A stretch of DNA of 60,508 nucleotides from positions 1-60,508 of the forward strand of contig CAVPXM010000065.1 in assembly GCA_963709405.1 (NCBI GenBank). Direction: 5' to 3'. Each line of letters begins with the position of its first letter. Position 1 is the first letter of the stretch. This DNA is from an uncultured Nitrososphaerales archaeon. GTDB taxonomy: Archaea > Thermoproteota > Nitrososphaeria > Nitrososphaerales > Nitrososphaeraceae. This document shows, in pieces, positions 6,871 through 44,062 of this stretch. Position numbers and translations under genes: made by a program. Below the pieces are notes generated by a model. That model was not told the DNA's origin and made no database searches. It worked only from the letters and a program-made list of their open reading frames with translations.

Positions 6871-8075
6871 CGGTTTAAAGCAATTATAGGATAAAACGAC
6901 TTTGCTCTAAAGTGTGTTCTGGAAGTGGGTGTATATGAGTGTATATGGATCATCATAAAAGATGTTATCTATATAATCTATCTTTATTGCAATATTTGGA
7001 TGATCGCTGGTCAGACCAAGTATAACAAAGACCCATGAATGAAATGACTTGGTTGATGAGCAAGTACCAACGACCATGATGTTTGCGGCAAGAATTATCT
7101 AGCATCGCATATGATATATATCTTATAAATTCTGTGGTAGTGAAACATACTATTTACATAATCATTGCTTACATGCCTTTCTGTTTCATTATTTTTTTAT
7201 CATATTTACTGCTTGGTCGCCAGCCTGAGCAAGGGAGCTATCTGTCGATATCCCTGGACATTCAAGTCACGAACCTGATAAATATTCAACTTATTTTTCA
7301 GTACTACTCACTGATAGCACAAAATATAATAGGCTGATGAAAAATGAGTTGAGATGTTGTCACAAGCCGAAGGGTATAACTTATTTAGAATACGAGAGTC
7401 TGAAGGATAGGCAAAACGTTATTCTTTATACACCACAATCCTTTATATCTATTACACCGTTACTTTGCTACATAATTTATCATGATAAAGCGATACTCTT
7501 TATAGATACCGACATAGTAGCTGGTAATGTTGCCCCTTATCATACTCTTAATGAAAGTTCAAGAAAATTGTGGAATTAAATAAAATGACCGGTGATTCTA
7601 GATTTGTAGAAAGTATTGGCACTAGTCGTAAATTGATTTACATTCCTATTGCAGGACTGATAATATCCACCCTTAGATTTTCGGTAGCTGAATTAGGTTT
7701 AATTTAAAATTTGGCCGTTTTGTATCACGAACGTGACATAAGTGAGAAAGAGAGAGTAGATAAATTGTAAATAATGTTCTAAAATGCTATCATTCCACTC
7801 AAAACTGCATAAAATATTCCCATAAACGTTATGAGTGACTCCAATGTGGCTATCAATGATATTTGTATTAGAATTATTATGATTAATGATATTCGATGTA
7901 TAATGTCAACCTGCGTGAGTCCAGAGATAATGAAAACAGTCCTTAAAGGAGGTAGACGTGGGTGGTCGACCCAAATGGTAAAACATTCTTAATAGAAGGC
8001 AGTCAACTCAGAAACATAAGTTGGTATTCTCAAAGAAGTTACATATATATAAGTTAGTTCCACGAAGAGGCAATA

Positions 8076-8859
8076 ATGAATCATCAAAGAATCTTACCGA
8101 TCGGTATCATATTGACGTTGCTGGTCTCGGCGCCATCATTGTTAATAACTAATCATCATATCTACGCACAAAATAATTCCAGGCAGCAATAAGAATAACA
8201 TTGATATCAAAACTATGATTCCTAAATTTTTGCAATCGTTAAGAAAGGATATCAGCGGACATTATAGTAATCCGACCTTTGGTATTAATGACATAGCCTT
8301 TCCTGGAGGATGGCATGGTCGTGCAATTGAGACCGAATTTGGACTTCTTATAAACATGCATCCTGGCAACGAAAGTCAATATTTACGTAATTTGTTAAAC
8401 AGAGAAAATCCAGTCATAAGTCCAGTTATATTGGTACAATCGCTTAACAATTCGGTGATTAATAAGCTAAGCTTTCCTACCTTTTCCATTTCCAAAAACT
8501 GCAAAGAATTGGCTGCAAACTCGACTTCCGTGGTAAATGGCAAGACATTTCATGTATATACAATAGAATGTCCGTTCTCCAAACTATTTTCGGGAGCGTC
8601 TATCAATAACCAGAGTGGAGCAAGTTCTAGTCTTGGCAATAATAGTGCTATCACTACGCCACCTAAAAATTTCAATATTAATGGCATAGGACAAACTAAG
8701 GTATATGAATACAAGACGCCAGATAGAACTTATCGACTGATGCTAGTAGTTAGCAGTCCTCTGTTCTCTTCAGCCACCCCTTCTACTACGCAGAAACCTG
8801 ATATTAGCAAGTATATTCCAGCCATCGACGCTACAGCAAAAACCCTGAAAATTAAATAG
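8076..8859 (+). CDS. Secreted hypothetical protein (one 1-nt frameshift near 8183)
   Basis: A signal peptide from ATG 8076 (ends HIYAQ) joins ORF 8215..8859 when one G is removed at aggcagc. Confidence 0.65.
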
Positions 8860-8910
8860 TAATATGAACAAAATACTCCCATTCTTTCATCTTACTCGTT
8901 TTTTCATTAA

Positions 8911-9350
8911 GAACCTATCCGAACAGTAGTGTAGTATAGCTCCCAGCCAGACCCAAGAGCAGTCATCAAATAGTGAATCGAATTCTGAGTGATACTGGAT
9001 AAAGTTAGAAGGAAGTCAAGCTAGCGATTAGCTATGAATGTTAACTTGAGGCATGAGATGGTTATTGTATGATGGAGGTATAACTAGAACCAACTCAATG
9101 AAGCTAGATAGTGATAGATTCTAATCATCACCAACGCTATAGATGGAATGTTGGAATCTAACTATTGATGATGAAATAAGCAGGTAAATTACAATGGAAT
9201 CACAGACAATCGAATCGAAGGTCCACTCCTGGCACAACAGGCTCAGAAAACTCTTAGTTAGATATGAAAAGAAATTAGAAAACTATTTTGCGTTAGTATG
9301 TTTGGGTTGTTGTATTCTTATTTACAGGAGGATAATTTTGGGATAGGCTC
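8911..9350 (+). mobile_element. Internally replaced IS5-family (IS1031-like) derivative or MITE
   Basis: Ends gaacctatcc / ggataggctc (imperfect IR) flanked by TAA on both sides; 9210-9345 encodes the transposase C-terminus WHNRLRKLLVRYEKKLENYFALVCL. Confidence 0.6.
8963..9171 (+). ncRNA. Candidate structured RNA
   Basis: Closing helix tcatcaa-a-tagt/acta-ttgatga; inner stems aagtta/taactt, agctag/ttagct, tggttat/ataacta, tagattc/gaatcta. Confidence 0.35.
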
Positions 9351-9943
9351 TAAGTCCTGATATTGGTAACAATCGCAGTGTATTTGCAAAACTACTAGAA
9401 ATCACATCTTTATGTTAATGTTAAAGATTGATACTGCACCAAAGATATAAAGGGCTGGTCTAGTTGTTAATAGTGCAATAAGAATATTGGGAATACATTA
9501 TTATCAAAACAGCAAACTTGAGATGCAAGTTCTCATAACATATAAGGTCTCGTATTATTGTAGTTGACATTTTGAACAATAAACATGACTATTATTCATC
9601 TTTCCTTACGATATATCCTTTTTATACTTTTATCTTCCTATAACTGCCTCAGTTCTAGGGATCCATGATAGAAGTAGTTCAGACTCATGTTTCACTTTTC
9701 TAATTCTGAGTTCGTCTATGAGGTGCATATCTAAATTTATATACGAGGAATTTATTCTTCAATTATCTGTATTTTGGAGATGTCCAAGGTACCTGTACAA
9801 GCCTAAATATTTCAGCTAGCAATAGTCTACATCGATCGATTGTGAAGTCTTATCAACACATTTTTGGGCCTGAACAAATGTATAAGATTTATAGAATTTT
9901 ATAGAATCAGTTATTTTATTGTTTTATTCAGTAGTAGTCTCAG

Positions 9944-10169
9944 ATCGTTGGTCTGGGTTCGGTGGAAACCAAGACAAATTTGACTCATTTTTGCCACCCA
10001 GAATTGGTCAATGATGGGACTATGGCGTCCTTCTAGGATAGATGAAACATCCTTTGATATGCCTCTACTCGTTTCTCTACCTGTCAATTGTGTTCTAGGT
10101 TTTTATAAGTACCAGAAAAAAAGCGATAGTAAGGGGTAAATTTTCAACACCCTTACGTCCACCATAGTT
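9944..10169 (+). ncRNA. Candidate structured RNA
   Basis: Stems atcgttgg/tcaatgat, tctgggt/acccaga, ggt-GGAA-acc, gactatgg/ccatagtt, gtaaggg/cccttac; TTTATAGA upstream. Confidence 0.45.
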
Positions 10170-10535
10170 AGCCGCGTTAATAAAAAAGCCCCTGACACTT
10201 ACATATTTAGGTTCATGGATAGAAAGGATAGGATCAAAAATCGGTGACGAAACATACAAGTTCGTGAACGTTGACTTTTTGACCGAAGCGAAAGAATTCG
10301 CTGAATAACTACATTATTAAGATTTGTATCAGCTTGGGAACCGCTACCTATACTTATAGCAGGTCATCACTATCATCATTACCATTATTACCACGAACTG
10401 ATGAAGAACAACTTCCAAGGCCCGTTTTCCAAAGACTACCTGAAATAGAAGAATAGCGAAACATATACGGTTGTCAGGAAGCAGGATAAATTGGTTGAAC
10501 ATAATTAAGTATTACCTTGATTTATTCTATGAAAT

Positions 10536-21640: not shown

Positions 21641-22508
21641 ATGTCAAATATTTTCGCAAAAGCCGAGCCGTATCTTTTCCTTACGCCTGCATTTGCGATA
21701 TTACTCATATTTTTGATATTCCCACTCTTTTGGAATCTGTACATCTCATTCCATGATGTATCTTTCATTACAATTCTGAAGGATTGGGAATACAGTGGAT
21801 GGACAAATTTTGTTGATTTGTTTAATGACCCTAATTTTTATACATCTTTGAAGATCACACTTCTTTTTGTGGCAGGATCAGTCGGTTTACAGTTCACCAT
21901 GGGTTTGCTTATGTCGGTATTACTAAATCAGAAAGTAAAAGCCTCAGGCATATTGCTTGCGATCTTTATAATACCATGGACTATATCTGCGGTAATAGCA
22001 GCTTTTTCATTCAAGTTCATTTTTGATTATAATTTTGGCATACTAAATTATATATTTCATCTGATGGGCCTACAACCTGTTGGCTGGCTTTCTGATCCTA
22101 ATATTGTGATCTGGTCTTTGGTAATAGCTAACATGTGGTATGGTGCCCCATTCACCATGCTCTTTCTTACTGCAGGATTATTATCTATAAACCCCTCAAT
22201 ATATGAAGGCAGCAGTGATAGATGGAGCAACGAAATTTAAATCTTTTTTGTATATCACACTTCCATTACTCAAGCCTTTCATCGTGATCAATCTCATTTT
22301 GATTACAATGTGGTCGGTAAACTTCTTTGATTTACAATTAGTTATGACCGGGGGAGGACCTTTGTTTGCTAGTACTACTGCTTCGCTTTATATGTATAGG
22401 CAGGCCTTTGAATTTGGGCTACTTTCTAAGGGCGCAGCTGCTGGATTGATCTTGATCATTATCAATATAGCCGTTACTTTTGTCTACATTAAACTCTTTA
22501 GAAGATGA
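21641..22508 (+). CDS. Carbohydrate ABC transporter permease (MalF-like; 1-nt frameshift near 22208)
   Basis: The EAA loop IYEAAVIDGA is restored by removing one G; TGGGP motif. Confidence 0.9.
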
Positions 22509-28192: not shown

Positions 28193-28525
28193 TATGCTGC
28201 AATCTTTTGCACGAACCTATCGGCTTTGGCAACAAATGAGGCCCTTGTCGGCCGCCTTCTACATTTTAATAGAATGAAATGTATAATCCCTTAAAGTTTT
28301 GATCCTCTCTTGATATAACATTCCATTCGCATATACTTAATACTTCACAACGTCTTGCACCTTAACATTATACGGCTAGTCTTTGTAGGTTTAACGGCAG
28401 CCATTGAATAGCAGAAAAGGCAGTGTACAATTCGTTCCCACGGATCCGGAACAATCATGTTCTACTAATATTGTATATTGTGATCTCGAGCTATATATAG
28501 CGGCAAAAAATATAATCATTAGATC

Positions 28526-28912
28526 TCAATAGAAGCAGCCAAGAAAACTAGACAGCGAGATCGCGCTTACCCATCCCGGAAGGTAATGCGATTTAACGGA
28601 TTCGTAGGCCGCTACGACTGACTAGGTTATCATATAGATCATCGGAAAGGAAGAATCGAAGGAATTTATAGCGCTCAAATAACCTATAGCAAGCCTGCAA
28701 ATCATTATAGTGAATGCATTTATGGTTTAACCTCGAGGCCGATGGTTGCTGTAAAAAGAGAGTGGGACGGTAATCATTACGGACCCTTGGTACATAGAAA
28801 GTCGTCCTGACAATCTCTTAAGGCTTTGTCAACGAGATCGCCCCAACTAGGTGATTAGTACTTATTTTCGCTGCTGAAGGAAAGGTCTTGGATCGAAAAC
28901 CACCCTTATTGA
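28526..28912 (+). ncRNA. Candidate large (about 390 nt) multi-domain structured RNA
   Basis: Three nested closing helices around six hairpin domains; TATATATA at 28492-28499. Confidence 0.55.
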
Positions 28913-28999
28913 ACTTATTTTCCCATCATCGACTTGAAACAACTCACATACCATTCGCTAATTTTTATTAAAAATGTTTGAACCGCTCTTACCATAATT

Positions 29000-29640
29000 C
29001 CGTTATTAAGACTAAGTAACAAAAATTCATGCTGTCATCCATAATTGCTTTTAGTTCTTCATACTTGGGAATTTTGTGCTCTTTCGGCCGCGCAAATTTG
29101 ATCGTGTAATTATCATTTCAGTTTATCTTTTGAGTGCCTCTTTTAACTCGCCATTTTCTTGCATTAATAATTGATATGAATCTGTACCGTCAGTAGATGC
29201 ATCATAATGTTGACTTATCCTTCTACACATGCTACTTTTTTTACTAAATTTTCTCATTTATCGTCACATGAATCATTATCTCCTGTGCTATGAGTAAGAC
29301 GTAATGTACTGCCATTGCTATTATCCGCAGGATTTACATTATTGTCGGTTTTTAGTTCGGCACTATCCTTGCTATCTCTCTATCTCAAAAGTGGAGGCAG
29401 TTCACTTTTAACTGTATATTTTTGCTTATACTCTGAAGGAAGGCACTCTTCGATTCATTTTTCGGCGATTTTATGCTTCCCTGACTTGAACTCTGCTTAT
29501 AAGTACCTTCTTGATGCAATTCTTATGTGCGTTGTGAATGTCCTTGCCAGCACCAAAATCCTATATTGTATTGTATCCAACGCTTGAAGGATTCACGAAA
29601 ATGATGAATATTTTCTATAACCTCTTCATTAGTCTCGCCA
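29000..29640 (-). pseudogene. Decayed hypothetical gene
   Basis: The minus frame gives KIAEK*IEECLPSEYKQKYTVKSEL with internal stops. Confidence 0.4.
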
Positions 29641-29667
29641 TAGATGCTTAACCTGAATCTAAAATCA

Positions 29668-30684
29668 TTATCTATATTCATCACCACAATCTCCAACTAT
29701 CTCAAACAAATTATTTGACTTTGTACATACGGCATCTATAGCATCATAATCAGACTTATCCAAACTAAGGTTGAATACCTGCATGTTATTGTTTATGTGA
29801 TCAGCTATCCCAAGTCTAACGCCGATAATAACTCCTGCTACTCTGGGTTTATCAAGAATATAGCGTGTTGCTACATTTGCGATGCTTACATTGTGCTTTT
29901 GTGCAATCGTGTTCAGAGTTGACAAAAGATCTTGGAACAAATTCCATCTGCCCCATGCATCTATCATCCGTTTGTATTTCCGTAAGCTTAGAGTGTTTAA
30001 CTCAGCCGACGATGGCTGTAATCTCCCCAGATAGCGCTCTGAGATCAACCCACCACAAATACTTCCATAGGCAAGAAGACTGATGTTATGCTTTAGGCAG
30101 AATGGTATCATTTTTACTTCTGGCCTTCGATCTATAATCGAATATTGAACCTGGTTCGAGACAATTTTTAGGTTTGAATCTGTCATGATTTGCATCCGCT
30201 CTGTGTCAAAATTTGTGAGACCAATCTGCTTGATAATTCCTTCATCCCTGAGGTCCGAAAGGTATCTGAGAGCATCCATGTAATATGGATTGTTATAATC
30301 CCACCAGTGGAATTGAAGCAAGTCCAGCGAGCTAACACTCATTCTACGAAGTGATCTTTCCACATTTTCTTTAACGATAGAACGTGTAATCCCACCCAGT
30401 TGCGGCACCCATTTTGTTAATGCTTGAATTTTATCAAGCTCTTCATTTCCCTTCAGTGTTAATAATCTTCGTCTGAACTCCCCAACAAAATCTTCTGCTG
30501 GGCCATAAATATCGGCTAAATCCCAACTCCTCAAACCTGCATTATGATATCTCATCATGTCCGCGATTGCTAATTCATGATCTATATGTCCATGTCCACC
30601 TGAGACTTGCCACATACCATTAAGTATTTTGCATATTATCAAATCAGGTGCTAGTTGGTAGTATTTTTTACTAATTTCCTTCAA
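29668..30684 (-). CDS. Aldo/keto reductase
   Basis: DLADIYGPAE, LDLLQFHWW, IGLTNFD, SNQVQYSIIDRR. Confidence 0.93.
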   Translation of the reverse strand: MKEISKKYYQLAPDLIICKILNGMWQVSGGHGHIDHELAIADMMRYHNAGLRSWDLADIYGPAEDFVGEFRRRLLTLKGNEELDKIQALTKWVPQLGGITRSIVKENVERSLRRMSVSSLDLLQFHWWDYNNPYYMDALRYLSDLRDEGIIKQIGLTNFDTERMQIMTDSNLKIVSNQVQYSIIDRRPEVKMIPFCLKHNISLLAYGSICGGLISERYLGRLQPSSAELNTLSLRKYKRMIDAWGRWNLFQDLLSTLNTIAQKHNVSIANVATRYILDKPRVAGVIIGVRLGIADHINNNMQVFNLSLDKSDYDAIDAVCTKSNNLFEIVGDCGDEYR

Positions 30685-30921
30685 TTTGTTTTCTCAATTT
30701 TATTCACCATAATCAAGCACAAAAATTTGACGCTAACCCTTAGATCATTAATTATAACAATGATGGCTAAAAATACTTGTACTTGATTTTACGATCCCGT
30801 ATGGTTAGCCCCATCTTTTAAGATTAAAGTACAGCCTCCTTCCGATACTCGCCAAATGCTCTTACTTTTTCTTTTTCATAGTTTCTCACTAAAAGCTTGC
30901 AATAAGTTATCGTTCGAAATA

Positions 30922-31256
30922 GCTCTGCTAGGTCAGAGCAGTATCATGGGAATTTGGTGAATTTGAATCTCAGACGCATGTCTTTGTATTCAGTAATTTG
31001 TCAGAGCATTCTTTCATGGAATTATGGATGATCTTGACACTAGCGGATGATGCTTGGGCTCGCCTCGGCCTTACGTCATCTATGCACGTACAAGAGCCGT
31101 TAGGATCACCTCAAACATTTCATTTGTAGTAAGGACCAAATGAAGCATATTTTTTCAACATCTGGGTTCAGATCAGTCCAGATAAAGTCATAAATGACGC
31201 GTACCGTAGGAGATAATCTTAGATCCCGTAAGAGTTCAAACTCCTAAACTGTGGCG
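30922..31256 (+). ncRNA. Candidate structured RNA upstream of the integrase
   Basis: Consecutive stems gctctg/cagagc, tcttg+ggatgatg/cgtcatct+caaga, ttcatttg/caaatgaa, atctggg/tccagat, taggag+tctta/taaga+ctccta. Confidence 0.5.
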
Positions 31257-31399
31257 AATACTCTCTCAATTATTATGTGCTTAGATTTATTATATTTTAG
31301 GCTGATTGTAAGACTGGTAACTGCACTAGGTATGTTAAAGCATATTAAACAAACCATAAAAGTTATATTAACAGATTAACTCATTATGTATTAGTACGT

Positions 31400-32604
31400 A
31401 TGATTGGCCGAACCAAAGATGCTAGTGAGACTATAACGAAATTTTTGACTAGTGTACAACGTAACAGTTTGAAATCAAAATACGCATACGAAAGCGCACT
31501 TCACCATTTCCAAGTATTTTTAGATCAAAAATATTCTAGCCAGGATAATAAGATTGAAACCATTCTAAATCTATTATCAAGCGGTGAACTTAATGTTTAT
31601 GAATTGCTTGATGATTTCGTCGCAAACCTCATGTCCATTAATCCAGACCTCACCCCAACCAGTATAAGATTGTACGTCAGCTCCAGTAAGATCGTATTTG
31701 GCGTATTATGATATAGATGTTATTCCTTCTAAGTTCAGAAGGAAAGTAAGAATGCCAAAGATCTACCGTGAAGACGAAGAGCCTCTTGATGTTCAAGACA
31801 TTAGAAAAATTTTGCTCTCCTGTAACAATCGAAGGCTCAAGACATATCTTCTCGTTTTGGCTAGCAGCGGAATTAGAGCATCTGAAGGATTAGCTATTAG
31901 GCTTAAGGATATCGACTTTACTAGCAATCCAACGAAAATTCACATTAGAAAAGAATATACTAAGACACGAATTGCCAGAGATATTTATATTTCTGATGAG
32001 GCAACACAATATCTGAAACAGTGGCTAGACTGGAAATATCACAACCAAGAAAGGCCAAGAAAAGCTGATGAAGATGATCTAGTATTTACAATCTATAAAT
32101 CCAAGACTCCAAACGGTTTGTATTTTAAGTTACTTGTAGAATTTCAAAAATTACTAGCTATCGTGGGTTTAGATAAAAGAAAAGAAGGTGGCGTACAAAA
32201 AAAGAAGAAAAATAACTTTGCATTCCTTCAGGCGATTCGTGAAAACTGTAATTAGCGATCAAACAAATCAAGATTATTCAGAATGGTTTCTAGGTCACAG
32301 TAAATCTCCATACTATACAAAGAAAGAGAATGAAAGAAGACAGCTCTATGCCACAAAATGTATGAAGTATCTAACATTCTTAGATTACACAACGATAGAA
32401 GTAACAGGTAAAAATATTGAAGCTAAATTATCTGAGAAAGAAAAGGAGATTCAATTACTAAGACATCGTGATTCAATAAATACAGACGCAATTGCGGGTT
32501 TATCAGACCAGTTAGCAAAGGTAATGCAGGAGATAGAGGTGTTAAAGAGGCAGCCACAACCAGGGCAACAAATTCAAACAAGCAAGATTACTCTCCCCAG
32601 CTAG
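31400..32604 (+). CDS. Tyrosine recombinase/integrase (two frameshifts)
   Basis: SAM-like N-terminus, SSGIRASE (R), YTKT (K), HSFRR (HxxR), FLGH, Y; coiled-coil tail. Confidence 0.9.
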
Positions 32605-33210
32605 ACGCTAATAGCCCTGGATTATTGAAGTAACCTTAAATATCTCTAACCCGATACCATAGTCATATCAACTGATACAAAGATCAATATTAGACATGAT
32701 TTAGTGGAACAACACCTCGAGCATCTATTTTATAGGCAGTATACAGAACGTCTATAATATTCATTATGTCCGAATATGCCAGCTAAATTATCATCTTTAT
32801 TCCACAAGTATCCTCAAAGGAGATGAAAGTAAATGAGTGTTAGCTCGATGGATCATGGTAAAAAGTATAAAAGGCAGCGATTATTTTTCCGTGCTCCAAT
32901 TGTGGCTCCCATAATTTCATATCTTTTCAGAGAATCCAGATTAATAATCACAACTGCGTTCAAAAGGCAAAGTGTCAAATGCGAATGGTGCGAATTTGTA
33001 CATGCCAGAAAAACAACAATCGTTCTATCGATATTCTTCGGTATCATCAAAGAGATATACGAAAACGTCAAGACAAGATAAACGAACAATGTACTCGCTA
33101 CAATGAAAAATAATCACCATTATGATCAAAAGGCGTTCAAAAGTGAGTTTTCAATATCGTGACGACCGGAAAAAGTTACTGGTCGTTTCTCTTTCCTTAT
33201 ATAGCAGTTA

Positions 33211-34380
33211 TCAATATCCCTCTAATTTACATGCGCTGCCTTGTAAAGAAAAAAGATACTTTCGTATTGTCGCTGCTGTTATAAAAGGGCTAAATAACAG
33301 CACTACAAGACTAGAAGCAAAAATTGCCAAATAGTAGGTAGATGTGAAAGAGGCAATTGAAAGAGTAAATGAACCAAAGGTAGTGGTTGCAGATGGAAAA
33401 ATTATGCCAAAGATGTAATATGATGCGCAAGTTGGACAAGCTGTAAATAAACCAGCCACATACGCAATAGACTTCAAAAATGTATGGTAGCGCTCAGATC
33501 CTAATTTTGTAGTTGCAATCGTTCTTTTACTGTTAATGGATGCTATTGCAGCCAATAGCAGACTCTGAGTCTTAATGCAAAGATCGAAAACATTATGTTA
33601 AATCCTACCAATACAGAAACTGCTATGAGAATGAGTAAATTTATTGGAAATATGAATAGGCCTATATGATCGGTAATGTAAATTGATAAAGCGGGTGCAT
33701 AACCTACCGGGCCATACGTTATTGTTGTTACTGATGGTGTATTATCTATACCGTACAAGTATTTGAAGCTGTGAGATCTATATACTAATATACTGGAGAT
33801 CTGTGAGAATAGAATTCCGTAAATAATGGTTGCAATTAAGAAGATTCTAAAGTATCGCTTATTTCCAAAAGCCAATTGGACAAGAATAGACCAAGATGGT
33901 AATGACAACACTCTTCCTCAATTTCTTTTCAGAGTTTGTTATTGATGAGGAATTGTTATTGTTGTTGTTACCATCATAATTATTGTCATTATTTTCATGA
34001 CTACTACTACCATCGCTTTTCCTTTTGGTGGTATATCCATGGCCATTTGTGATCATTTCATGTTTGGCTGATGAAGGTGATGTTAATGATGGTAGTTGCG
34101 TTGATAAAAATGTAGTAATGATGGAAGCAAGCGTATTATGATTATTAATGCTACGATATAGCGGATTTGATATTAGTAGCCTGAAAAAGGCAATTGCAGT
34201 TGATGTAATTGCTATGAAGATAACAATATAGAAAAGGTAAGCTGTCTGCTGAATCCACATAGAATTCTGGCTTGTCCATATTTTAGGAAGAAGAGATGGA
34301 TAGACAAATATATCCACAATTATTACTGCAATTGCAGATACAATTAAAGACACAACTATAAATTTTAATTTTGACAGCAA
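33211..34380 (-). CDS. Polytopic membrane protein with CPTC motif, split into three ORFs
   Basis: Overlapping hydrophobic ORFs 33859..34380, 33543..33911 and 33211..33555; GLFTACPTCAS. Confidence 0.65.
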
Positions 34381-34549
34381 TCAAAACTCACTCCTGCATT
34401 GCATATGGGAATCGGTTTACATTCATCTCAAAAACCATTATTCTAAATATCAAGTAACAATGACAAAAAAATTAGAGGATTTATTATTTCCTTTCAATTT
34501 TTTGGCAAGTGTATTTATTTACTATATATTCATGCTATTGTATCTCTTT

Positions 34550-35673
34550 TTACCTAGATGCGTCGTGAACTATTAAAGTACCAATCATGTTGAAGTGATT
34601 CATTGGATCTGCATCAGGAAAAGCACAGAATGATGTGCATCTAAATGTGAATGTTCCAGGTTTATCAGCCATAAATTGTAACGTTTGGTTTGTGCCTTTT
34701 ATTAAGAATGTATTAATATTGTAGCTATCAATACCAAAGCCATGTCCATTATATAGTGCTACATTATCGTTGGCGGTTATGAAATGCAGTCTTACTAGGT
34801 CTCCTTTGTTAACTTCTATTTTATTTGGTGTAAACGACCATGAGACTACCTTGATTGTGATATCCTTTACAGAAGGTTGAGTATTGCTACTGCTACCAGC
34901 AGCAGTCGTAGTAGGCACAGCATTAGAATTAGTAGTCATCGTTGGTGTTATTGGCGTTGCCAGTGATGGTATGTTATTAATATTATTATTATTGCTACTG
35001 GCTGCTGTTGTATTTTCTGAAGGTGCTTGTACATTAACCGGAAAGTATGCTTCTTTTACAACATGAGGCTTTATGAAATTCGGCGACATAACTTGCTGAC
35101 CATAGATTACCCCTATGTTATAAGTGCCAGCTGAAGGGAATACATATGAGAATTGAACCATACTTCCATGTCCATGCATATTTGGCATTGCTAAGATTGT
35201 CTGTCCTGTATTACCATTTTTTATAAAAATATCAAGGTCGCTATGCCATAGCCATGTAGCATTTTTATAAAATACATTTAAAACGAAGGTCGATGGTTGG
35301 CCTGCAATCAATTGTTTTGGTAAATGAACCATTTCAATGATTAGAGGATCTTGGTACTTGCGCATTATCTGGGCCTTGTCTGGGGTAAACATTCTCTCAG
35401 CTGAAGGTATTGGAAGTCAGAAGCTTTATGATGTGCTAAAAATAGCGATAGTGTAGGATATGCTGTTGTGTTCGATATTGTTGCATTAGGATTTGTTAGA
35501 GTAGTTGCATTTGGTATATTGGGGTTTGTAAAATTAGTATTACTAGTACCTACTGCAAATGCATTATGGAGAGTCCCGCTACCATTACCAATGCCATTTA
35601 CTGCCATTACTATAGAGGCTGCTACCATTATTGTTGACAAATATATCGTGAATAGTGATTTGAAATTTGTCAT
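34550..35673 (-). CDS. Secreted cupredoxin (CuA-like) domain protein, frameshifted near 35415
   Basis: Signal ending NAFA; WSFTPNKIEVNKGDLVRL, HGFGI, DKPGTFTFRCTSFC...HFNM; upstream His/Met motif MPNMHGHGSM. Confidence 0.85.
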
Positions 35674-35917
35674 TTTGATGACAAAAGAACTATAACAATA
35701 TCTAGTATATTAATTCTATTAATCTACATTAACTAAGTTACATGGATTATAATCAGGATACTGTTCATCTTTGAATAACGAACTTGACATACATGATATT
35801 GTTGTTGGAAGAAATAAAAGTAGTGTTCATTGTGGTTATTAGTAAGTAAATAGCATTGTGGTCAGGAGTAAGTCAATAGCACTTTAATAACTGTCAAGAA
35901 TGAATGTCAGAATCCCT

Positions 35918-36228
35918 GTGCGAACGAAACTTTTCACTGAGCAGTATGCTGTAAGTACATCAATATGCCAAGACAGCAATCAACGAGATAAGGACACACA
36001 CTTGTACTTACTATTGTAGATATCAAAATCATATCCGTGGAGAAAAACTGCTTGCGTTAAGGCCGATAAAGTGGAACCATCGATTTATAAAGTACGGGCC
36101 CCTTTTAGCACCGATGTCGTCGGTAATTCCGCCGAATAATAACAGAAAAGAATTTCATCATGACTAATGCAGGATATAGGGCCATGTTCCGTATCACGGA
36201 AATTCGTCATATTCTCTTATCTTCGCAT
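35918..36228 (+). ncRNA. Candidate large (about 310 nt) structured RNA
   Basis: Closing gtgcgaa/ttcgcat; nested tttcact/agtggaa, gagcagt/actgctt, gtaagtaca/tgtacttac; TTTAATAA at 35883 and T8 after the end. Confidence 0.55.
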
Positions 36229-36235
36229 TTTTTTT
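36228..36235 (+). terminator. Oligo-T archaeal terminator candidate
   Basis: T8 run directly after the closing helix of the 35918 element. Confidence 0.4.
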
Positions 36236-36703
36236 GTATGACATGCTAAGTAAAAAATCTACTGGATTAAGACCTGTGCAATAGGCCGCATCAAAATAAA
36301 TATCAATTTAACAGAGTTACCAAATATTATACTCCTTGGGACTGGAGGATTTGCAATATCAATCTTCTTCTTTTTGCATAGTAAGAAGAATTGGTACTAT
36401 TAAAACTAATTATAGATCACGAATTGATATCACTATCAAAATGATCGAAAGCAGACTTATCAATGCACCGAGATTAATGACCCTTGTCAAATATAGACAC
36501 TACTAAAATATTTATGCACATTGGAGTTGATTATTCGGTAGATTGATAATCTCTGATTTGTGCTTTCATTAAAATACAAAGCCCAAACCTACTTGCAAGT
36601 GCTGTTTCTTAGATGAGTTTCAAAAATATCCAGTTTGAGCCAACGATTACACTTTAAATAGGATGATTTTTACTCATTTGTACAGGTATGCAGATCTCCC
36701 GGT

Positions 36704-38635
36704 ATGCTAGTTGATATAGATCCTAACTTCCGAACTGATCCGAGGGAATACTCCAAGGTAGAGATTGCGAAGATTAACTCTAATGATTTAAGAGGTAATC
36801 TATTCAACGAGTTTAGAAACCAGGATACAGAAAATATCTCCTGGGAGTCTGAACAAATAGCAAAATCACATGGAATTTACTTGGAATTCAATAGAGCAAA
36901 GACAGGAAACGAGAAAGATTGGATATACATGATACGTATAAGTATACCCGGGGGTGGACCAATAATGTGTCAACAGTGGAATATACTTGACAAAGTAGCT
37001 GATTTGTATGCAATACGACCAACTGATTCCAGCTCCATCGCTATGCCAAGTCTTAGAATAACAACCAGGCAAAACATACAGCTCCATTGGATCAGAAAAA
37101 GGAATGTTGTCGATGCAATAAGCGAGATAGCAAAATCTGGATTCTTTACAATCAATGGCTGTGGCGATAATACTCGAAATGTAGTTGGCTGTCCATTGGC
37201 AAGATCTTCATGTATTTTTGATTCTAATAAATGGGCTCAAAAGGTCGGAAAATATTTTGCTCTTCCTCCATCAGCATATATCGAAATTTTTGAGATAGAT
37301 CCAAATTACATCAGAAAAGCAGGATTGTACGATAGGTATCCTGGAGTAACAAGATTTGATTATGGTCGAAACCAACTGAACAGAAAATTCAAAATCGCAT
37401 TTTCGGCAATCCATAAAGTTGGGGAGAAGAAATACGTTCCGGATAATTGTGTTGAGCTAAGAACGAATGATATAGGAGTTGCTCCGATCATAAATAATAT
37501 CGCAGATGATTGTCCTAGCGTAGACAGATTTCAGGTCTATATAGGGGGAGGCCAAGGTCAACAATCGGGTAAACCAACCATCGCTGCTCTGGGTGAGCCG
37601 TTTGGTGTATTCACTGAAGAAAACCTCCTCAAGGGTCTAGACGCCATTGTAACTGTCCATAAAGAATGGGGAGATAGACAAAATAGGCACTGGGGCAGAC
37701 TCAAATATGTAGTTAAAGTTAAGGGAATTGAATGGTTCAGAGAGCAAGTGAGAAGTGTTGTTGGACTGATTTTTGATCCTCCCCTATCAGATTATGATTA
37801 TGGAGAAAGAAACTTACATTTGGGCTGGATAAAGCAGTATCTGCCAGCTGGTGATGGCAGGAACTTCAAATGGTCCTATGGTATGTTTATAGAAAATGGC
37901 AGATTAATAGACGGAAGTCCAAACGGAGATTTGAAGAGTATGATAAAATATCTAGTTAACAAGTATCGGGCGATTGAGCTTTTTACAACCCCGAATCAAC
38001 ATTTACTCTTTTCAAATATAGACAATAGTGAAAAAGACGAATTTGAAAATGATATGAAGTTTTTTGGCTATGGTCTTCGCAAATATATAGGTGGCCCGTC
38101 CAAAAACAAGCAAGTAAATGTCAAACCATATTCAAAACTAAGGATGTTATCTGGAGCGTGCGTCGGTAGAGACACTTGTAGACTAACTTATACTGATTCA
38201 GAAAAATTTGAGCCCTACCTTATCGATATATTAGAGGATAAGTGGGGAGAATTGAACGAATCTATAGGTGTTACAGGCTGTGAAAAACAATGTTATAGAC
38301 CAGCAACAAAGACAATAGGTTGGGTAGGCACTGGCTTTAATCTCTACCAGTTGACGATAATGGGAACAGAAGATGGAAAACATCAAGGAGGCCCACTCAT
38401 TGATCCTAAGACAAAAGAACAATACCTTCACTTTGTGCCACGAAATGAAGTTGCCACTGTTACAGATGCACTCTTCAAATTATATTTAGAAGATAGATCA
38501 AAAGAAGAAGATAGGCCTGGAGGAATGGGATATTTCTTCAGAAGGATAAAAGCCGAAGAAATAATTTCTAGCTTAAAGTCAAATCCTAAAACTGTCGAGC
38601 TAATGAAGAGGATATTTAAAGGACAACGGCTTTAA
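36704..38635 (+). CDS. Siroheme/[4Fe-4S] nitrite/sulfite reductase, ferredoxin-dependent type
   Basis: TTRQNIQLH, CGDNTRNVVGCP, RKFKIA, ACVGRDTC...GVTGCEKQC. Confidence 0.92.
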   Translation: MLVDIDPNFRTDPREYSKVEIAKINSNDLRGNLFNEFRNQDTENISWESEQIAKSHGIYLEFNRAKTGNEKDWIYMIRISIPGGGPIMCQQWNILDKVADLYAIRPTDSSSIAMPSLRITTRQNIQLHWIRKRNVVDAISEIAKSGFFTINGCGDNTRNVVGCPLARSSCIFDSNKWAQKVGKYFALPPSAYIEIFEIDPNYIRKAGLYDRYPGVTRFDYGRNQLNRKFKIAFSAIHKVGEKKYVPDNCVELRTNDIGVAPIINNIADDCPSVDRFQVYIGGGQGQQSGKPTIAALGEPFGVFTEENLLKGLDAIVTVHKEWGDRQNRHWGRLKYVVKVKGIEWFREQVRSVVGLIFDPPLSDYDYGERNLHLGWIKQYLPAGDGRNFKWSYGMFIENGRLIDGSPNGDLKSMIKYLVNKYRAIELFTTPNQHLLFSNIDNSEKDEFENDMKFFGYGLRKYIGGPSKNKQVNVKPYSKLRMLSGACVGRDTCRLTYTDSEKFEPYLIDILEDKWGELNESIGVTGCEKQCYRPATKTIGWVGTGFNLYQLTIMGTEDGKHQGGPLIDPKTKEQYLHFVPRNEVATVTDALFKLYLEDRSKEEDRPGGMGYFFRRIKAEEIISSLKSNPKTVELMKRIFKGQRL

Positions 38636-39030
38636 GTTTGCTAAGACAAATAAGATCATCTATTCACTTATCTATGTTAATTCTTCGGCACAGAAAGGGC
38701 GCTCAGTTTTATTTTAGATTATCGAACCAGTTTCGTGATGTGAATCAATCATCTATTCATCTAGAAAGACTGATTCGATTGTCCTCTTTTTGCTGAATAG
38801 TCAGAAATTAATGTTGCTTTACATCATACTGAACTAATGCTAATTATATTTTGATAGATTTCAAAATTGTGTTAAGGCAGGGAATATCATACTAAGCTCT
38901 GAGAATAGATTGAATCGGATAGAAATGCTTGTTGAAACAGAACAATATAGACATTCCATTCAGCCCATTCAGATAATCGAACACCTCTAAATCGACTAGA
39001 TTTATTAAGACTTCATAATCGATAATACGT

Positions 39031-40236
39031 ATGCTTATCGGTATAATTGGGAAATCTAATGTTGGTAAATCCACATTTTTCAATGCTGTGACAGATCTTA
39101 GTGTCCAGACAGCTAATTATCCGTTCACTACTATAGAACCAAATGTAGGTGTTGCGTATGTTAGGATTGAATGCATTTGTAGAGAATTTGAAGTTCAAGA
39201 TAACCCTGTACACTCAGTTTGTATTGATGGTATTAGATTTATCCCAGTAAAAGTAATAGATATTGCAGGGTTAGTACCAGGAGCTCATCTCGGAAAGGGT
39301 ATTGGAAATAAATTTCTAGACGATTCTCGTCAAGCAGATGCATTGATTCATGTAGTAGATGCTTCTGGATCTACAGATAGCGAAGGCAGGCCTGTCGCTG
39401 CCGGGACAGCTGACCCTCTATATGATATTAAATTTGTGGAGGAGGAGTTCGACCGGTGGTTGTGCTCCATCATAGGTAAAGAATGGAGCAAGTTCGCAAG
39501 AGAGGCTGAGAATAAAGGACAGAGGATCGACCTTCTGCTAACAAAACGGTTATCAGGGCTAGCGATTGACGATAATCAAATAACAAGAGCAATTAATCGG
39601 GCAAATTTGAACAATAAGAAGCCTACGCTGTGGCAGGAAGAGGACATTTTCAATTTGAGCAGAACCGTAAGAATGTTATCCAAGCCTACCATAATTGCTG
39701 CAAATAAGATAGATATCCCTTCTACCGAAACAAATATTATGATCATGAAAGAGAACGGATACGCTAACATCATCCCCTGTGCGTCGGAAGCCGAGGTATT
39801 GCTTAGACGTGCTGCGAAAAAAGGAATTTTACATTACCTTCCAGGAGATCGTTCTTTTGAAGTAAGGCCAAATGTTAGTTTGAGCGAACAACAGACAAAA
39901 GTCCTGAATACTATTAGCACACTCTTTAAAAAGTATTGTGGTACTGGTGTACAGGATGTCTTGAACAAGTTGTGCTTCGATTCTCTGAAGTTCATCGCTG
40001 TATTTCCTGTTGAGGACGAATTTAAGTTAACTGACAAAAAGGGAAATGTGTTACCAGACACCTACTTGTTACCACCTGGCTCGACACCAAAAGATCTAGC
40101 ATTCAAGATACACGCTGATATTGCAAAAAGTTTTCTTTATGCAATTGACGTCCGAACGAAACAACGATTAGGTGCTGAATATGTTCTCAAACACAGAGAC
40201 GTAATAAAGCTAGTTTCCACAACTAGTAGGAGGTAG
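39031..40236 (+). CDS. ychF: OBG-family ATPase/GTPase YchF with TGS domain
   Basis: GKSNVGKST, NYPFTTIEPN, DIAGLV, ANKID. Confidence 0.95.
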   Translation: MLIGIIGKSNVGKSTFFNAVTDLSVQTANYPFTTIEPNVGVAYVRIECICREFEVQDNPVHSVCIDGIRFIPVKVIDIAGLVPGAHLGKGIGNKFLDDSRQADALIHVVDASGSTDSEGRPVAAGTADPLYDIKFVEEEFDRWLCSIIGKEWSKFAREAENKGQRIDLLLTKRLSGLAIDDNQITRAINRANLNNKKPTLWQEEDIFNLSRTVRMLSKPTIIAANKIDIPSTETNIMIMKENGYANIIPCASEAEVLLRRAAKKGILHYLPGDRSFEVRPNVSLSEQQTKVLNTISTLFKKYCGTGVQDVLNKLCFDSLKFIAVFPVEDEFKLTDKKGNVLPDTYLLPPGSTPKDLAFKIHADIAKSFLYAIDVRTKQRLGAEYVLKHRDVIKLVSTTSRR

Positions 40237-40242
40237 GACACT

Positions 40243-41262
40243 TTGTATTCACTTGGAATAGAAAGTACTGCCCATACAATTGGATGTTCCGTGATTAAAG
40301 TCAATTCAGAAAGTCTGGAATCAGACAGTAGATGTAAGATCCTGTCAGATGTGCGTGGAGTTTACAAACCTCCAACCGGATCTGGTATCCATCCTCGCGA
40401 AGCTTCTCGACATCATTGCGAAAAAGCTCCGTACTTGGTAAAAAAATCGCTAAATGACTCTGGAATCGAGGCTGAAGATCTAGATATAATCGCATATTCA
40501 GCTGGGCCTGGTTTGGGGCCATGTCTCAGAGTTGGTGCCGTTCTTGCACGTACATTAGCAGCCTTCCATCATAAACCACTTGTTCCGGTGAATCACGCTC
40601 TAGGGCACATAGAATTGGGAATGATGTTAACTGGGTCGTCAGACCCATTGGTTCTACTGGTCTCAGGAGGACACACAATGATCTTAGGATTTAACAATAA
40701 AAAGTGGAGAGTATTTGGTGAAACTCTTGACATCACATTAGGACAGCTACTGGACCAATTCGGAAGAGCAATGGGATTTGCCTCCCCTTGTGGTTCAGTA
40801 ATCGAGCAGCTCGCAAACAAGTCCTCAATGCGGTACTCTCACTTGCCATACATAATAAAAGGTAACGACGTTTCTCTCTCTGGATTACTTACCGCTGCAA
40901 TAGAGTTAGGAAAGGAAAAGAACACTACCTTGGCTGATGTATGTTACTCACTACAAGAAACATCATTTGCAATCCTCACAGAAGCTGTAGAAAGAGCACT
41001 CTCGTTTAGCAACAAAAATGAAGTATTGGCTGTGGGAGGAGTAGCTGCGAATAAACGACTAGGGCAAATGCTAAGTGGCGCATGTACGAGGTTGATGAGC
41101 AGTCTACGTATCTGCCCGATTCATTATGCCGGTGATAACGGTGCGCAGATCGCATGGACCGGCGCAATTGATCACCTCTCTTCTGGGAAAAGAGTCGAGA
41201 TTGAAAAAGCAGCAATTCGGCAATCATGGAGACTAGATACCGTCGAGGTGACTTGGCGATAA
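40243..41262 (+). CDS. kae1: KEOPS t6A synthase Kae1
   Basis: LGIESTAHT, GPGLGPCL, VNHALGHIE, LLVSGGHT, GDNGAQIA. Confidence 0.96.
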   Translation: MYSLGIESTAHTIGCSVIKVNSESLESDSRCKILSDVRGVYKPPTGSGIHPREASRHHCEKAPYLVKKSLNDSGIEAEDLDIIAYSAGPGLGPCLRVGAVLARTLAAFHHKPLVPVNHALGHIELGMMLTGSSDPLVLLVSGGHTMILGFNNKKWRVFGETLDITLGQLLDQFGRAMGFASPCGSVIEQLANKSSMRYSHLPYIIKGNDVSLSGLLTAAIELGKEKNTTLADVCYSLQETSFAILTEAVERALSFSNKNEVLAVGGVAANKRLGQMLSGACTRLMSSLRICPIHYAGDNGAQIAWTGAIDHLSSGKRVEIEKAAIRQSWRLDTVEVTWR

Positions 41263-41275
41263 TAGATAAAAATAT

Positions 41276-41653
41276 TCATGAATGACTAGGCTTGGATCGT
41301 TCGTTTGAATCAGTACCTCTTTTTAGGTATAGTCCTTTCTGTTCTTCAATAAGCTTTATCCATTTACCAATATTAAAAACTCCAAATTTCAAAGACCTCC
41401 CATCTGATGTGGTGATCACAACCTTTTTAATTACAAATCCTTCGGATCTAACCGAGGATATTCTATCGAGAGGTATGTCCAGAAGAACACCTTCAACCTT
41501 CTTTGATAGTGTGGCCATCCTGCCTTCAGTCTTTTCAAAGATGATCCTCTGGTTTGTTAATGTAAGAATTCCATTCTTCAGTTTGTCCTCTGCACAATCT
41601 TCCTGAAATACTCTTATTTCCCCCTCCCTAGGATCCGCTTCTGAAGAACTCAC
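41276..41653 (-). CDS. PH-like/GRAM-like domain protein
   Basis: GILTLTNQRIIFE...IPLDRISSV...WIKLIEE. Confidence 0.7.
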   Translation of the reverse strand: MSSSEADPREGEIRVFQEDCAEDKLKNGILTLTNQRIIFEKTEGRMATLSKKVEGVLLDIPLDRISSVRSEGFVIKKVVITTSDGRSLKFGVFNIGKWIKLIEEQKGLYLKRGTDSNERSKPSHS

Positions 41654-41745
41654 ATCGAATCTATATTAGTTAACAGAGTATTATGTATTACGCAATAATA
41701 GTCTCCCATCCGCTGAATTAGGATGCGAATTTCATACTCCAAGCT

Positions 41746-41963
41746 CAAACATTGTTGTTTAACAAATTTGTGATGGTAGATCTGTATTAAAGACTGGATG
41801 CTGTAATACTATAGGAGGTCCTAATTATTTCCACTCTTCACAAATTTAACTGTTAGCAACCTAGGTGGATATTAAACCCACAGTCATTGTATTGCAGTCT
41901 ATCATATAATATCCACAGTTTTACTATTGCTAACCACCATAGCCATATTGCCCTTAACGTTTG
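41746..41963 (-). ncRNA. Candidate structured RNA with loop-loop pseudoknot
   Basis: Perfect stems of 10, 10, 8 and 6 bp; closing helix with a minus-strand G.U pair; TTTATATA (minus) at 42001-41994. Confidence 0.6.
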
Positions 41964-42295
41964 TAAGTAGAATAAATAAGTGTCATAGATGCATATATAA
42001 ATCGAATATATCTGTCGGTGTTAATATAAGATTAGAATGTCATAATTGTAGCGGCTTCGACAAACATATTTGCTATAGGTAACAGTATAAAATCATCACA
42101 ATAAAACACTTGCACCGGAGCATATGGATTGAATTTTGATAATATAGGCAAACGGCACGTATTGATATGGTATATAGTAGAGAAGGATCAGCAAAGACTT
42201 ATCCTATATTTGCAGCCAATTGCAAACATGCACTTATGCTGATATATATGTTTTAATAATATAATTTCTCATATTAAATAGGGTATTAAACTCAA

Positions 42296-42670
42296 ATGAA
42301 GACGAAATTTTTAGCAGATAATAATTTCCTGCAAACAGATTCACAAAATAAATTATCTCTTTATGAAATATCGCCTGTGTGGGCCAAACGCCTCAACCAA
42401 GCTATAAATGAAATCCCTCGGCTTTCACTGATACGTCTAAAATGGTATTTTGAACTGAAGAATGCGTCGAGATGCGTAGTAGGAGAGGCATATGGATTTT
42501 CCTCAGCATATGTATCTAAATGCAAAAAATGCAATAGGCTGGGTTGGTGCTTTATGTTTTATTTCATGGTTCAGTCAAATTCAAGGATTGAAGAGACAAA
42601 AATAAAATTCGTAGATCATTGGAATAAAGCACATTCTGGGATCGGGAATAATAAGAGCCCGGTTGAATGA
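42296..42670 (+). CDS. Hypothetical protein with Cys/His motifs
   Basis: RCVVGEAYG...CKKC...FVDHWNKAH. Confidence 0.7.
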   Translation: MKTKFLADNNFLQTDSQNKLSLYEISPVWAKRLNQAINEIPRLSLIRLKWYFELKNASRCVVGEAYGFSSAYVSKCKKCNRLGWCFMFYFMVQSNSRIEETKIKFVDHWNKAHSGIGNNKSPVE

Positions 42671-42967
42671 TCTTTGTTAGAATGTGAAACTCCAGACACA
42701 GCCGTGACAACAAAATAATGGTTTGCCTGGTGGGTCATCCTTGGTTAATGTATTCAGTTATTCTTATCATTATGGTTAATTTCTTATCATATTCTGTGGT
42801 CAACTCAGTTTCGCTTTTTCACCACATGCGATATCACAATTTTGCTTATGCTATAGATGCTGTAATGAAATAGCAATTTCATCGCACCGAACACTTGCTC
42901 ATTACAATCAAGTAAAACCCTCTATTTCTTGTCTCATGATTAGTTATGTCGAGGTATCGATTGAATT

Positions 42968-43222
42968 CTAGTCTTGCAATAAATAAATAGCTTACTAGTT
43001 AGATTAGTTTGAAGGTTGGCAGACGCATCGATACTTCTGTCATAATTGTCAAACACAATTTTTGCTCAGAAGCGAGGACCTAAGGAGAATAGGCCCACAA
43101 GCCAACCTTTGTTATACCACGCGTAATAAAATATCAAGATATGTTCTTTCACCTAAGTATAATTCTGGCCATGTTTTGTTACAACAAATATCTGTCGATA
43201 ACTAGTAAGATACAAGTACTAG
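42968..43222 (+). ncRNA. Candidate structured RNA
   Basis: ttactagtt/aactagtaa (9 bp), gaaggttggc/gccaaccttt (10 bp with one G.U), aattgt/acaatt. Confidence 0.55.
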
Positions 43223-43437
43223 GCGTTAGGCTGAATTGTGAGTTTTTGGATTGTTTATCTATTTATAATCATATACCAGCCCAGATAATATTCGGACGCC
43301 GTTTCTAGTATTTTAGAGGAATGCTGGTGAACTGAACATATTTGCATTTACAGTGCATTCGATGAATATACTTGTCACTAGTAACATCGATTTGTTTTAT
43401 TAGAAGTTACACTATTAACTCGAAGAGTCAGACAAGG

Positions 43438-43548
43438 ATGATAGTAGCAATCGAAGATGTAATAGTGGCAATTGCATTTGTAGCCACGGCGCCCATTCTA
43501 ATCAAAAATGCCTTTGCACATTCTGGCCATCACTACCATCACCACTAG
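43438..43548 (+). CDS. 36-aa secreted His-rich peptide
   Basis: Hand translation MIVAIEDVIVAIAFVATAPILIKNAFA-HSGHHYHHH*. Confidence 0.5.
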   Translation: MIVAIEDVIVAIAFVATAPILIKNAFAHSGHHYHHH

Positions 43549-43630
43549 TAGAAAGCAGCATTTTAGATTTGCATGAAAATGACGAATATATCAGCTAAAA
43601 CCCCAACTGTCGCTGGTCTAAATGAAATTT

Positions 43631-43845
43631 GTGGTTCTAGACCTCGATATGATACGTTGATGGTGTAGCCCCAAAGCGATTTGCAAGAACGAAGCAAGTT
43701 TGCAGATAGCTTCTGGGGTTTCCAACCAACACCCGTTATAAAACAGGTTGTTGTTAAAAAGCCCTAGAACACGTGTTAAGGAGGGGGAGGGTTGCAACTG
43801 GCTAGGACTAAGCGGTTCCCAATTCTTGATCATTCAGTGATTGGA
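43631..43845 (+). ncRNA. Candidate structured RNA
   Basis: 75-nt interrupted hairpin 43656-43730 enclosed by gttctag/ctagaac. Confidence 0.45.
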
Positions 43846-44062
43846 TTGTTAGAGGAGAAATATTATAAATAGACTCCCACAAGCAAATTTAAGATGCTAA
43901 TACCAATGTGACAGAGGTCTCACAATTATCAAAACAAAGGCCATTTAAGAAAATATAAGCAATCTCAAAAAGTAATATGATATAAAATATTGTCATTGTT
44001 GCACCAACTAATATTATAATTATCAATTAATCTAGGATGTAGCTGCAAATAAATAAAATTCA

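Follow-up and report, generated by a model that had tools for sequence, protein, structure and literature searches.

Do the long gaps between genes in the genome of an uncultured archaeon of the Nitrososphaeraceae hide a repertoire of structured non-coding RNAs (ncRNAs)? Nitrososphaeraceae are soil ammonia oxidisers of major importance for soil nitrification. The 60,508-nt stretch analysed here (the window) corresponds to contig C65 in an assembly of 4.83 Mb (100 contigs, 37% G+C). Its RadA has its nearest matches in genomes labelled Nitrososphaeraceae archaeon, in agreement with the family guessed in a sequence-only reading of the window. That reading had also proposed that nine gaps, together with seven weaker candidates, are filled with multi-stem elements of 200–400 nt representing large archaeal ncRNAs. 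Our analysis leads to another answer: the gaps are probably for the most part non-functional or locally functional DNA, and only the gap at 42.9–43.8 kb holds conserved non-coding elements, termed blocks A and B, which are most likely small RNAs.

Folding, promoter motifs and conservation of the gaps

Intervals free of open reading frames (ORFs) are indeed present at every one of the 16 places, as gaps of 250–1040 nt (ORFs of at least 50 aa, greedy choice). We computed exact folding-energy z-scores against 60 dinucleotide shuffles for ~250 nt from the start of each candidate, by which it is named below. On the + and − strands, z was 0.0/−0.2 at 8963, −1.8/−0.1 at 9944, −0.8/−0.3 at 26284, 0.05/1.1 at 28526, −0.6/−1.9 at 30922, 0.3/0.1 at 35918, 0.4/−0.2 at 41746, −2.5/−2.2 at 42968 and −2.0/−0.4 at 43631, and the seven weaker candidates fell between −1.16 and +0.95. 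In nine 250-nt coding controls, z lay between −2.50 and +1.75, and 3 of the 18 strand values were −1.97 or less; the nine main candidates likewise have 3 such values out of 18. We also covered both strands with 200-nt tiles, with the expected energy modelled from 158 tiles and 20 dinucleotide shuffles of each (R2 0.84). The mean z was −0.14 for non-coding tiles (n = 410; 9.0% below −2) and −0.06 for coding tiles (n = 560; 6.1% below −2), without a difference between the two sets (Mann–Whitney p = 0.73). Multi-stem folding beyond chance is therefore not borne out, since 14 of the 16 candidates have an absolute z below 2 on both strands, like shuffles and coding controls, and the helices found by eye are a chance product of AT-rich sequence. 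The proposed repertoire of gap-filling ncRNAs fails at these same 14 loci, which also offer no homologues for covariation, whereas candidates 42968 and 43631 overlap conserved elements that are structured, albeit of ~100 and ~150 nt instead of 200–400 nt.

Three TATA motifs had been placed upstream of stems. All three exist where they were reported, but none lies in sequence conserved among relatives, and their presence near eye-chosen stems is expected because TATA-like hexamers occur at ~3–3.5 per kb, two strands combined. Across the window, TATA-like motifs are scarcer than in dinucleotide shuffles (YTTAWA, 212 versus 345 ± 16; TTTAWATA, 6 observed versus 21 ± 5), which would fit selection against stray promoters. 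A search of the whole window against Rfam 15 returned no match at the gathering score and none at E ≤ 5, and ARAGORN detected no tRNA or tmRNA in the window. The genes for signal recognition particle (SRP) RNA and RNase P RNA sit on other contigs of the genome.

We compared positions 26000–44100 (~18 kb) with 40 related genomes; the following refers to the matches listed, beyond which lie 41 weaker ones. These matches fall on genes, with 75–81% identity within the genus. Flank-anchored blastn alignments (word size 7) against five same-genus loci stop at 38620–38626, near the gene stop at 38635, restart at 38983–38990 and stop again at 41695–41708; the spacers of the relatives are of similar length and cannot be aligned to those of the window. 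Homologues of the MFS transporter gene are alignable over 26529–28193 only. Five anonymous spacers (Table 1) were considered as pseudogenes and rejected as such, as none of their 140 open segments of at least 30 aa matches Pfam at E ≤ 0.01, none of 44 open segments matches PHROGs and no paralogue is present within their own genome. Sequence conservation beyond that of flanking non-coding DNA is absent from 14 of the 16 candidates and is found for blocks A and B only.

Blocks A and B

The last gap holds two sharp-edged conserved blocks in unconserved surroundings (Table 1). Besides their conservation, both show signs of helix covariation and a strand bias and are free of coding constraint, and their copy number and distribution were determined across the family. 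Below, G and C numbers denote related genomes and contigs of the window's own genome, respectively.

Block A is 75–77% identical in G004 (2 copies) and G005, with flanks that cannot be aligned. The covariance model R2 retrieved it from 6 of 151 family genomes, all belonging to the window's genus, as a single copy or, in G004, as two; it found none in G003, an assembly that is 75% complete and whose block B copy lies 700 nt from a contig end. The predicted fold comprises 34 pairs; besides the closing helix of 11 bp it has two hairpins, one long and internal, the other small. Across the seven sequences, from which the structure itself was derived, pairing is kept in 96.2% of cells, and both partners change in 4 of the 34 pairs. 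The closing helix has two positions that vary via G-U intermediates (A-U/G-U/G-C and C-G/U-G/U-A), and the covariation score is reached by 3 of 500 column shuffles. Block A folds with a z of −3.4 on the + strand (0 of 60 shuffles as low) and −4.3 on the − strand, its G-U and U-G pairs being compatible with the + strand only. A TATA-like box, near-invariant with one substitution (in G001) among the seven genus copies, ends 22 nt 5' of the first base of the closing helix. Block A would most likely be a genus-specific small RNA of ~100 nt, closed by the 11-bp helix and putatively expressed from a TATA promoter of its own; its likely contact site would be a single-stranded stretch that is purine-rich and invariant.

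Block B shares 80–83% identity with copies in G003, G004 (2 copies) and G005, with indels of 1–2 nt. Its first 83 nt form a hairpin with nearly invariant 5' and 3' blocks and an apical part of variable sequence and length. The hairpin model R1 scores 97.7 bits at the window copy and detects the element in 52 of 151 family genomes, spanning 12 of 18 genera with 1–4 copies per genome; the window's own genome carries four, on C65, C40, C73 and C100. Three of the genomes with R1 matches (G019, G094 and G122) are complete. An order-wide search with R1 recovered the hairpin from 9 of 23 other family genomes and from none of 127 genomes of 19 other families. In 30 aligned copies, 96.7% of cells pair, and both partners change in 4 of the 14 pairs: C-G becomes U-A in two separate genomes, U-A becomes C-G in a single case, and one genus and one further genome show paired changes from G-C/C-G to A-U/U-A. 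Of 500 shuffles, none attains the covariation score and 8 attain the pair count, the alignment having been fitted to the model. In 25 of the 30 copies the model strand gives the stabler hairpin, with a mean difference of 3.5 kcal/mol, and z is −2.4 for the window copy. In other genera, conserved blocks extend ~120 nt 3' of the hairpin.

Hairpin length varies from 51 to 81 nt, and since every residue class modulo 3 is represented, the two invariant blocks are not linked by a constant reading frame. We accordingly rejected block B as coding sequence: a frame is open in some copies, but the window copy has a stop and close relatives differ by indels of 1–2 nt. The position of block B is stable within genera, flanked in g14 by an RNase H-like ORF and a CHAD gene and lying in g2 3' of a uracil-DNA glycosylase gene, and this synteny argues for vertical descent and not mobility. 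In genus g14 (loci L060–L064, L071 and L072), a conserved ORF of ~170–200 aa on the other strand starts 25–84 nt from the hairpin at every locus inspected; it has no Pfam match, and we take its motif pattern to be RNase H-like.

Several known classes were considered and set aside. A miniature inverted-repeat transposable element (MITE) or other dispersed mobile repeat fits neither block B, given its 1–4 copies and its syntenic positions in g14 and g2, nor the single-copy block A. A viral origin of B was rejected, as viral contigs contain no exact pattern match to its hairpin; so was a tRNA fragment or attachment (att) site, as ARAGORN found no tRNA in 12 loci with B copies or B-like motifs, and so were SRP and RNase P RNA, both located elsewhere in the genome. 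C/D-box guide small RNAs are ~50–70 nt long and carry box C (RUGAUGA) close to their 5' end and box D (CUGA) close to their 3' end. By inspection, block A has no conserved 3' CUGA and is ~100 nt long; an internal GUGAUGA or GCGAUGA is present in 6 of 7 copies, the window copy deviating there. In H/ACA guide small RNAs, a hairpin with a large internal pocket is followed by an ACA/ANA box just 3' of the stem. Block B, again by inspection, has a small internal loop (5 versus 3 nt) and no conserved ANA after the stem. Rfam yielded no match on B homologues of 6 loci and, within 42950–43850, a sole match at E ≤ 10 to an irrelevant microRNA model (13.7 bits).

Blocks A and B resemble archaeal small ncRNAs with their own promoter (C/D-box, H/ACA, SRP and RNase P RNAs) in being short, conserved, non-coding and rich in helices, and block A in having a TATA box at the usual archaeal distance. 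They differ from them in matching no Rfam model, from SRP and RNase P RNAs in that those genes lie elsewhere in this genome, and from guide RNAs in lacking the box and pocket features described above. From their sequences, both look like undescribed small RNA genes, absent from Rfam, and are candidates as such. Block B would most likely be one member of a family-wide class of structured RNAs of ~150–200 nt headed by the long hairpin, whose nearly invariant stems and internal loop suggest a bound protein or RNA partner. Tentatively, and with somewhat less than even confidence, we propose that B-type elements constitute an undescribed ncRNA class limited to the Nitrososphaeraceae (~150–200 nt, 1–4 genes per genome, with a nearly invariant internal loop), which may be the RNA component of a ribonucleoprotein or regulate in trans, and that A may be a genus-specific small RNA evolved beside B.

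Alternative readings

Several points weigh against reading blocks A and B as RNAs and the remaining gaps as mostly devoid of function. The covariation counts of B come from a model-fitted alignment, which favours structure; most pairs of its conserved helices never vary, and these helices contain 9 A-C or C-A cells versus 4 G-U or U-G cells, so they do not by themselves fix the strand. Single-sequence z-scores of 8 B homologues are weak (+0.39 to −2.11), and no consistently placed TATA box or promoter was found 5' of B. For A there are 7 sequences, of which 3 are almost the same, and its structure was taken from their alignment. Transcription, RNA ends and any function of A and B are inferred. 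Lastly, the five anonymous spacers have no detectable homology, which does not prove lack of function.

Soil sequencing runs, two from RNA libraries and four of unspecified kind, share 16–44% of the sampled words of 35600–44100. The data are assembled contigs, which cannot show RNA starts, ends, strand or level, and RNA libraries may contain DNA. Over 25900–44100 the contigs derive from related strains and cover genes and spacers alike. Contig 15 of run X2 spans 42908–43234, and no X2 contig lies over 41075–42895. This sole RNA-library contig over block A also includes the promoter and 120 nt past the RNA, and may thus be DNA carry-over. From these contigs we draw no conclusion for or against expression of A and B.

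Blocks A and B might instead act as DNA, their helices reflecting palindromic protein recognition at dyad-symmetric, operator-like or site-specific recombination sites. Such a role would suit the build of B, two nearly invariant and partly inverse-complementary blocks around a variable spacer of 40–46 nt, as well as the many pairs that never vary, the lack of a clear promoter 5' of B and its position 25–84 nt from the start of a divergent gene in g14. We nevertheless consider it unlikely, because compensatory changes preserve pairing at four positions of B and four of A, and because the variable apical part of B is self-complementary with G-U pairs and stabler on the + strand in 25 of 30 copies. 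Moreover, the G-U/U-G pairs of A (11–96 in 6 sequences, 17–71 in 5) would be A-C mismatches in symmetric DNA, and its near-invariant TATA box, with one substitution in 7 copies, stands at promoter distance.

A second possibility is a single unit with A at one end and B at the other, which could be a small mobile or cassette-like element or else a long transcript. Block A lies 5' of B in the same orientation and on the same contig in G001, G002, G004 (2 copies), G005, G006 and the window; this constant arrangement, flanks not syntenic with the window and a spacer of 480–1340 nt with varying content would all be compatible with such a unit. Against it stand B elements without A in 11 other genera, at genus-stable positions, a 266-aa gene on the opposite strand within the spacer of G001 and G002 (with remains of it in G006) and the lack of a match in viral contigs. 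Furthermore, B is not the end of an element, since conservation continues for >1.2 kb beyond it into an SDR (dehydrogenase) gene in G004, G005, G006 and G001. We hold a single unit to be very unlikely and, from the variable spacer content and the conservation continuing past B, take A and B for two distinct neighbours.

That most gaps encode independently transcribed structured ncRNAs of 200–400 nt, sharing an architecture and no sequence, is almost certainly wrong: the gaps are long and ORF-free, TATA-like motifs lie near three of them and 2 of 16 candidates overlap conserved structured elements, but the z-scores of the other 14 match shuffles and coding controls, the gaps are unconserved even within a genus whose flanking genes are 75–81% identical, five loci are gene or transposase fragments, and TATA-like hexamers occur at ~3 per kb anyway.

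This negative outcome cautions against reading the gaps of soil ammonia oxidisers as a hidden RNA world; here they reflect debris and drift. The positive outcome, small RNAs as the likely nature of A and B, is modest but usable: B is a concrete family-wide candidate that can be checked in published transcriptomes of cultured Nitrososphaera, whose genomes carry homologues. A literature search, limited in cover and no proof of absence, yielded no ncRNA family and no regulatory or structural small RNA for Nitrososphaeraceae beyond SRP and RNase P RNA (PMC13475601).

Gap contents and genome setting

Outside blocks A and B, the gaps would contain promoters and untranslated regions beside genes, fragments of the insertion sequence (IS) types IS5, IS6, IS110 and IS630, frameshifted gene pieces, one dispersed-repeat remnant, a single gene for a small peptide and lineage-specific spacer that even members of the same genus no longer share in recognisable form (Table 1). 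The sequence-only reading had offered decayed non-autonomous RNA or single-stranded DNA mobile elements as an option. It was right in spirit for several gaps, but what they hold is ordinary IS transposase gene debris and one short dispersed repeat, not RNA or single-stranded DNA elements of a common architecture. Homology of gaps to protein-coding genes was found at 2940, 4070 and 7580 and over parts of 7905 and 8963.

Table 1. Coordinates of the features discussed, in order of position in the window (C, contigs of the same genome; G, related genomes).
Feature	Position	Strand	Remarks
IS110-type transposase gene fragment	2925–3095	−	Inside candidate 2940–3200; tblastn 72% to C54:44501–44608
IS6-type transposase gene fragment, N-terminal part	3941–4231	−	Covers candidate 4070–4215
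Frameshifted gene	7229–7704	+	C-terminal part 7555–7704 is candidate 7580–7740, out of frame
Degraded N-terminal (signal-peptide) part of gene 8215–8859	8024–8214	+	Overlaps end of candidate 7905–8040
IS5-type 3' end, transposase C-terminal fragment and terminus	9188–9356	+	At end of candidate 8963
Repeated non-coding segment, candidate 9944	9945–10229		92% to C22:15238–15520; z −1.8/−0.1
Split within ABC permease gene	22203–22240		Pfam
Truncated short dispersed repeat, ~80 nt	26353–26434		Inside candidate 26284
MFS_3 transporter, two frames	26497–27777 and 27479–28192		Pfam
Short gene fragment	28348–28461	−	Start of gap 28278–29314; DNA match 78% to G003
Further anonymous spacers	28462–29314, 30850–31353, 38636–38982, 41709–42295		No match among the matches listed, 40 genomes; z ~0
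Integrase in three frames	31400–32604		Pfam; relative G006 aligns as one piece
Unconserved anonymous spacer, candidate 35918	35674–36645		No match among the matches listed, 40 genomes; z ~0
TATA-like box AATAAATAAATA of block A	42978–42989	+	Alignment of 7 genus copies
Block A, candidate small RNA, ~100 nt	43011–43113	+	Conserved block 42963–43109
Small unannotated gene, 36-aa peptide	43438–43548	+	Hydrophobic, histidine-rich C-terminus; between A and B
Block B, conserved element	43648–43794	+	5' hairpin 43654–43736; purine-rich 3' tail genus-conserved
IS630-type left end	55752–55853	+	Truncates spacer of candidate 55400–55575
IS1595 and IS630 fragments	Within the window		Pfam

IS debris resembles several of the flagged gaps, which are transposase fragments or ends with many genomic copies; gaps 28526, 30922, 35918, 38675 and 41746 differ in having no such homology. 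The paralogue of the IS110-type fragment on C54 lies in an intact 354-aa frame, and we presume the IS110 assignment from the N-terminus of that frame, not from a library match. The IS6-type fragment has 13 further matches on 11 other contigs (71–87% identity), the longest copy, on C86, being a 224-aa frame with an IDETLIKV...WLW motif; a homologous locus of another genome (L067) matches Pfam DDE_Tnp_IS240. Beside this fragment, at 4212–4291, a near-perfect 80-nt palindrome forms the strongest fold of the window (modelled z ~ −4.7 on both strands). The IS5-type 3' end occurs in ~45 copies in its own genome and in dozens in relatives, and other copies have fuller frames (up to 145–166 aa) that continue through the same C-terminal peptide. 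Eight further copies of the IS630-type left end, at 97–100% identity, are present in the genome, and adjacent ORFs match HTH_32 and DDE_3.

The frameshifted gene is represented in G003, G004 and G005 by an intact frame of 119–140 aa that aligns to both window frames, with DNA homology spanning 7303 to 7723. Homologues of gene 8215–8859 in G004 and G005 encode 276 aa from a start equivalent to window position 8024. The short fragment at the start of gap 28278–29314 has tblastn matches of 55–79% to 5 places on C73, C25, C50 and C51.

The short dispersed repeat is 75–89% identical to copies in genera g4 and g15–g18, with up to 4 matches per genome among the matches listed; its left edge is sharp and other copies extend ~25 nt past the window copy. 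It resembles MITE-like repeats in its sharp edge and its several copies per genome in other genera, from which B differs by its 1–4 copies at genus-stable positions and A by its single copy. The repeated segment of candidate 9944 was rejected as a MITE, as no terminal inverted repeats were found; within it, at 9945–10004, a ~55-nt motif with a short dyad recurs in G001–G003, G007 and G011, sometimes several times per genome. The 36-aa peptide is kept in G001 and G002, at other loci. A 51-aa ORF at 42718–42873, with a 52% identical paralogue at C20:53907–54068, may be another small unannotated gene.

Long gaps are not peculiar to this window. ORFs of at least 100 aa cover 60% of the window and 57% of the genome, figures that denote crude ORF cover and not annotation-based coding density, and the ORF-poor state is genome-wide. 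The published coding density of Candidatus (Ca.) Nitrosocosmicus is 74–77%, the lowest among ammonia-oxidising archaea (PMC6657660). Long intergenic stretches thus occur genome-wide there, as in the window genome with its 57% ORF cover, although an annotation-based figure is set beside crude ORF cover and the comparison implies no shared genus. We therefore regard long gaps as a known trait of such organisms (PMC6657660).

The Pfam-named genes of the window include an XPB helicase, an ABC sugar transporter, TruD, RadA, an aldo-keto reductase, a nitrite/sulfite reductase-like protein, an Obg-like GTPase and Kae1, and the same scan reveals many broken genes (Table 1). RadA directly adjoins the aldo-keto reductase gene in G003, G004 and G005, which indicates that the MFS pseudogene and the ~1-kb gap 28526 (window region 26100–29486) are an insertion in the window lineage. 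The MFS_3 gene (26497–28192) is frameshifted near 27480–27520, and a related strain in run X1 is one base short at 27490. The break seems real in this population, as run X4 matches the window at this site, though X4 may be the source sample. Directly 5' of the RadA start, ~70 nt (26026–26094) are 81–89% identical in G003–G005 and probably represent the RadA promoter and leader. The region 31400–33800 starts with the tyrosine integrase in three frames, followed by a segment (32618–33173) repeated on five contigs at 79–85% identity and another (33585–33776) with a 98% match on C25; the region is probably what decay has left of one end of an integrated element. Positions 1–10312 are repeated at 98–100% identity on contig C37, which stops exactly there, and partly on C87; this may be a segmental duplication of recent date, or the co-assembly of strains may have made the assembly redundant.

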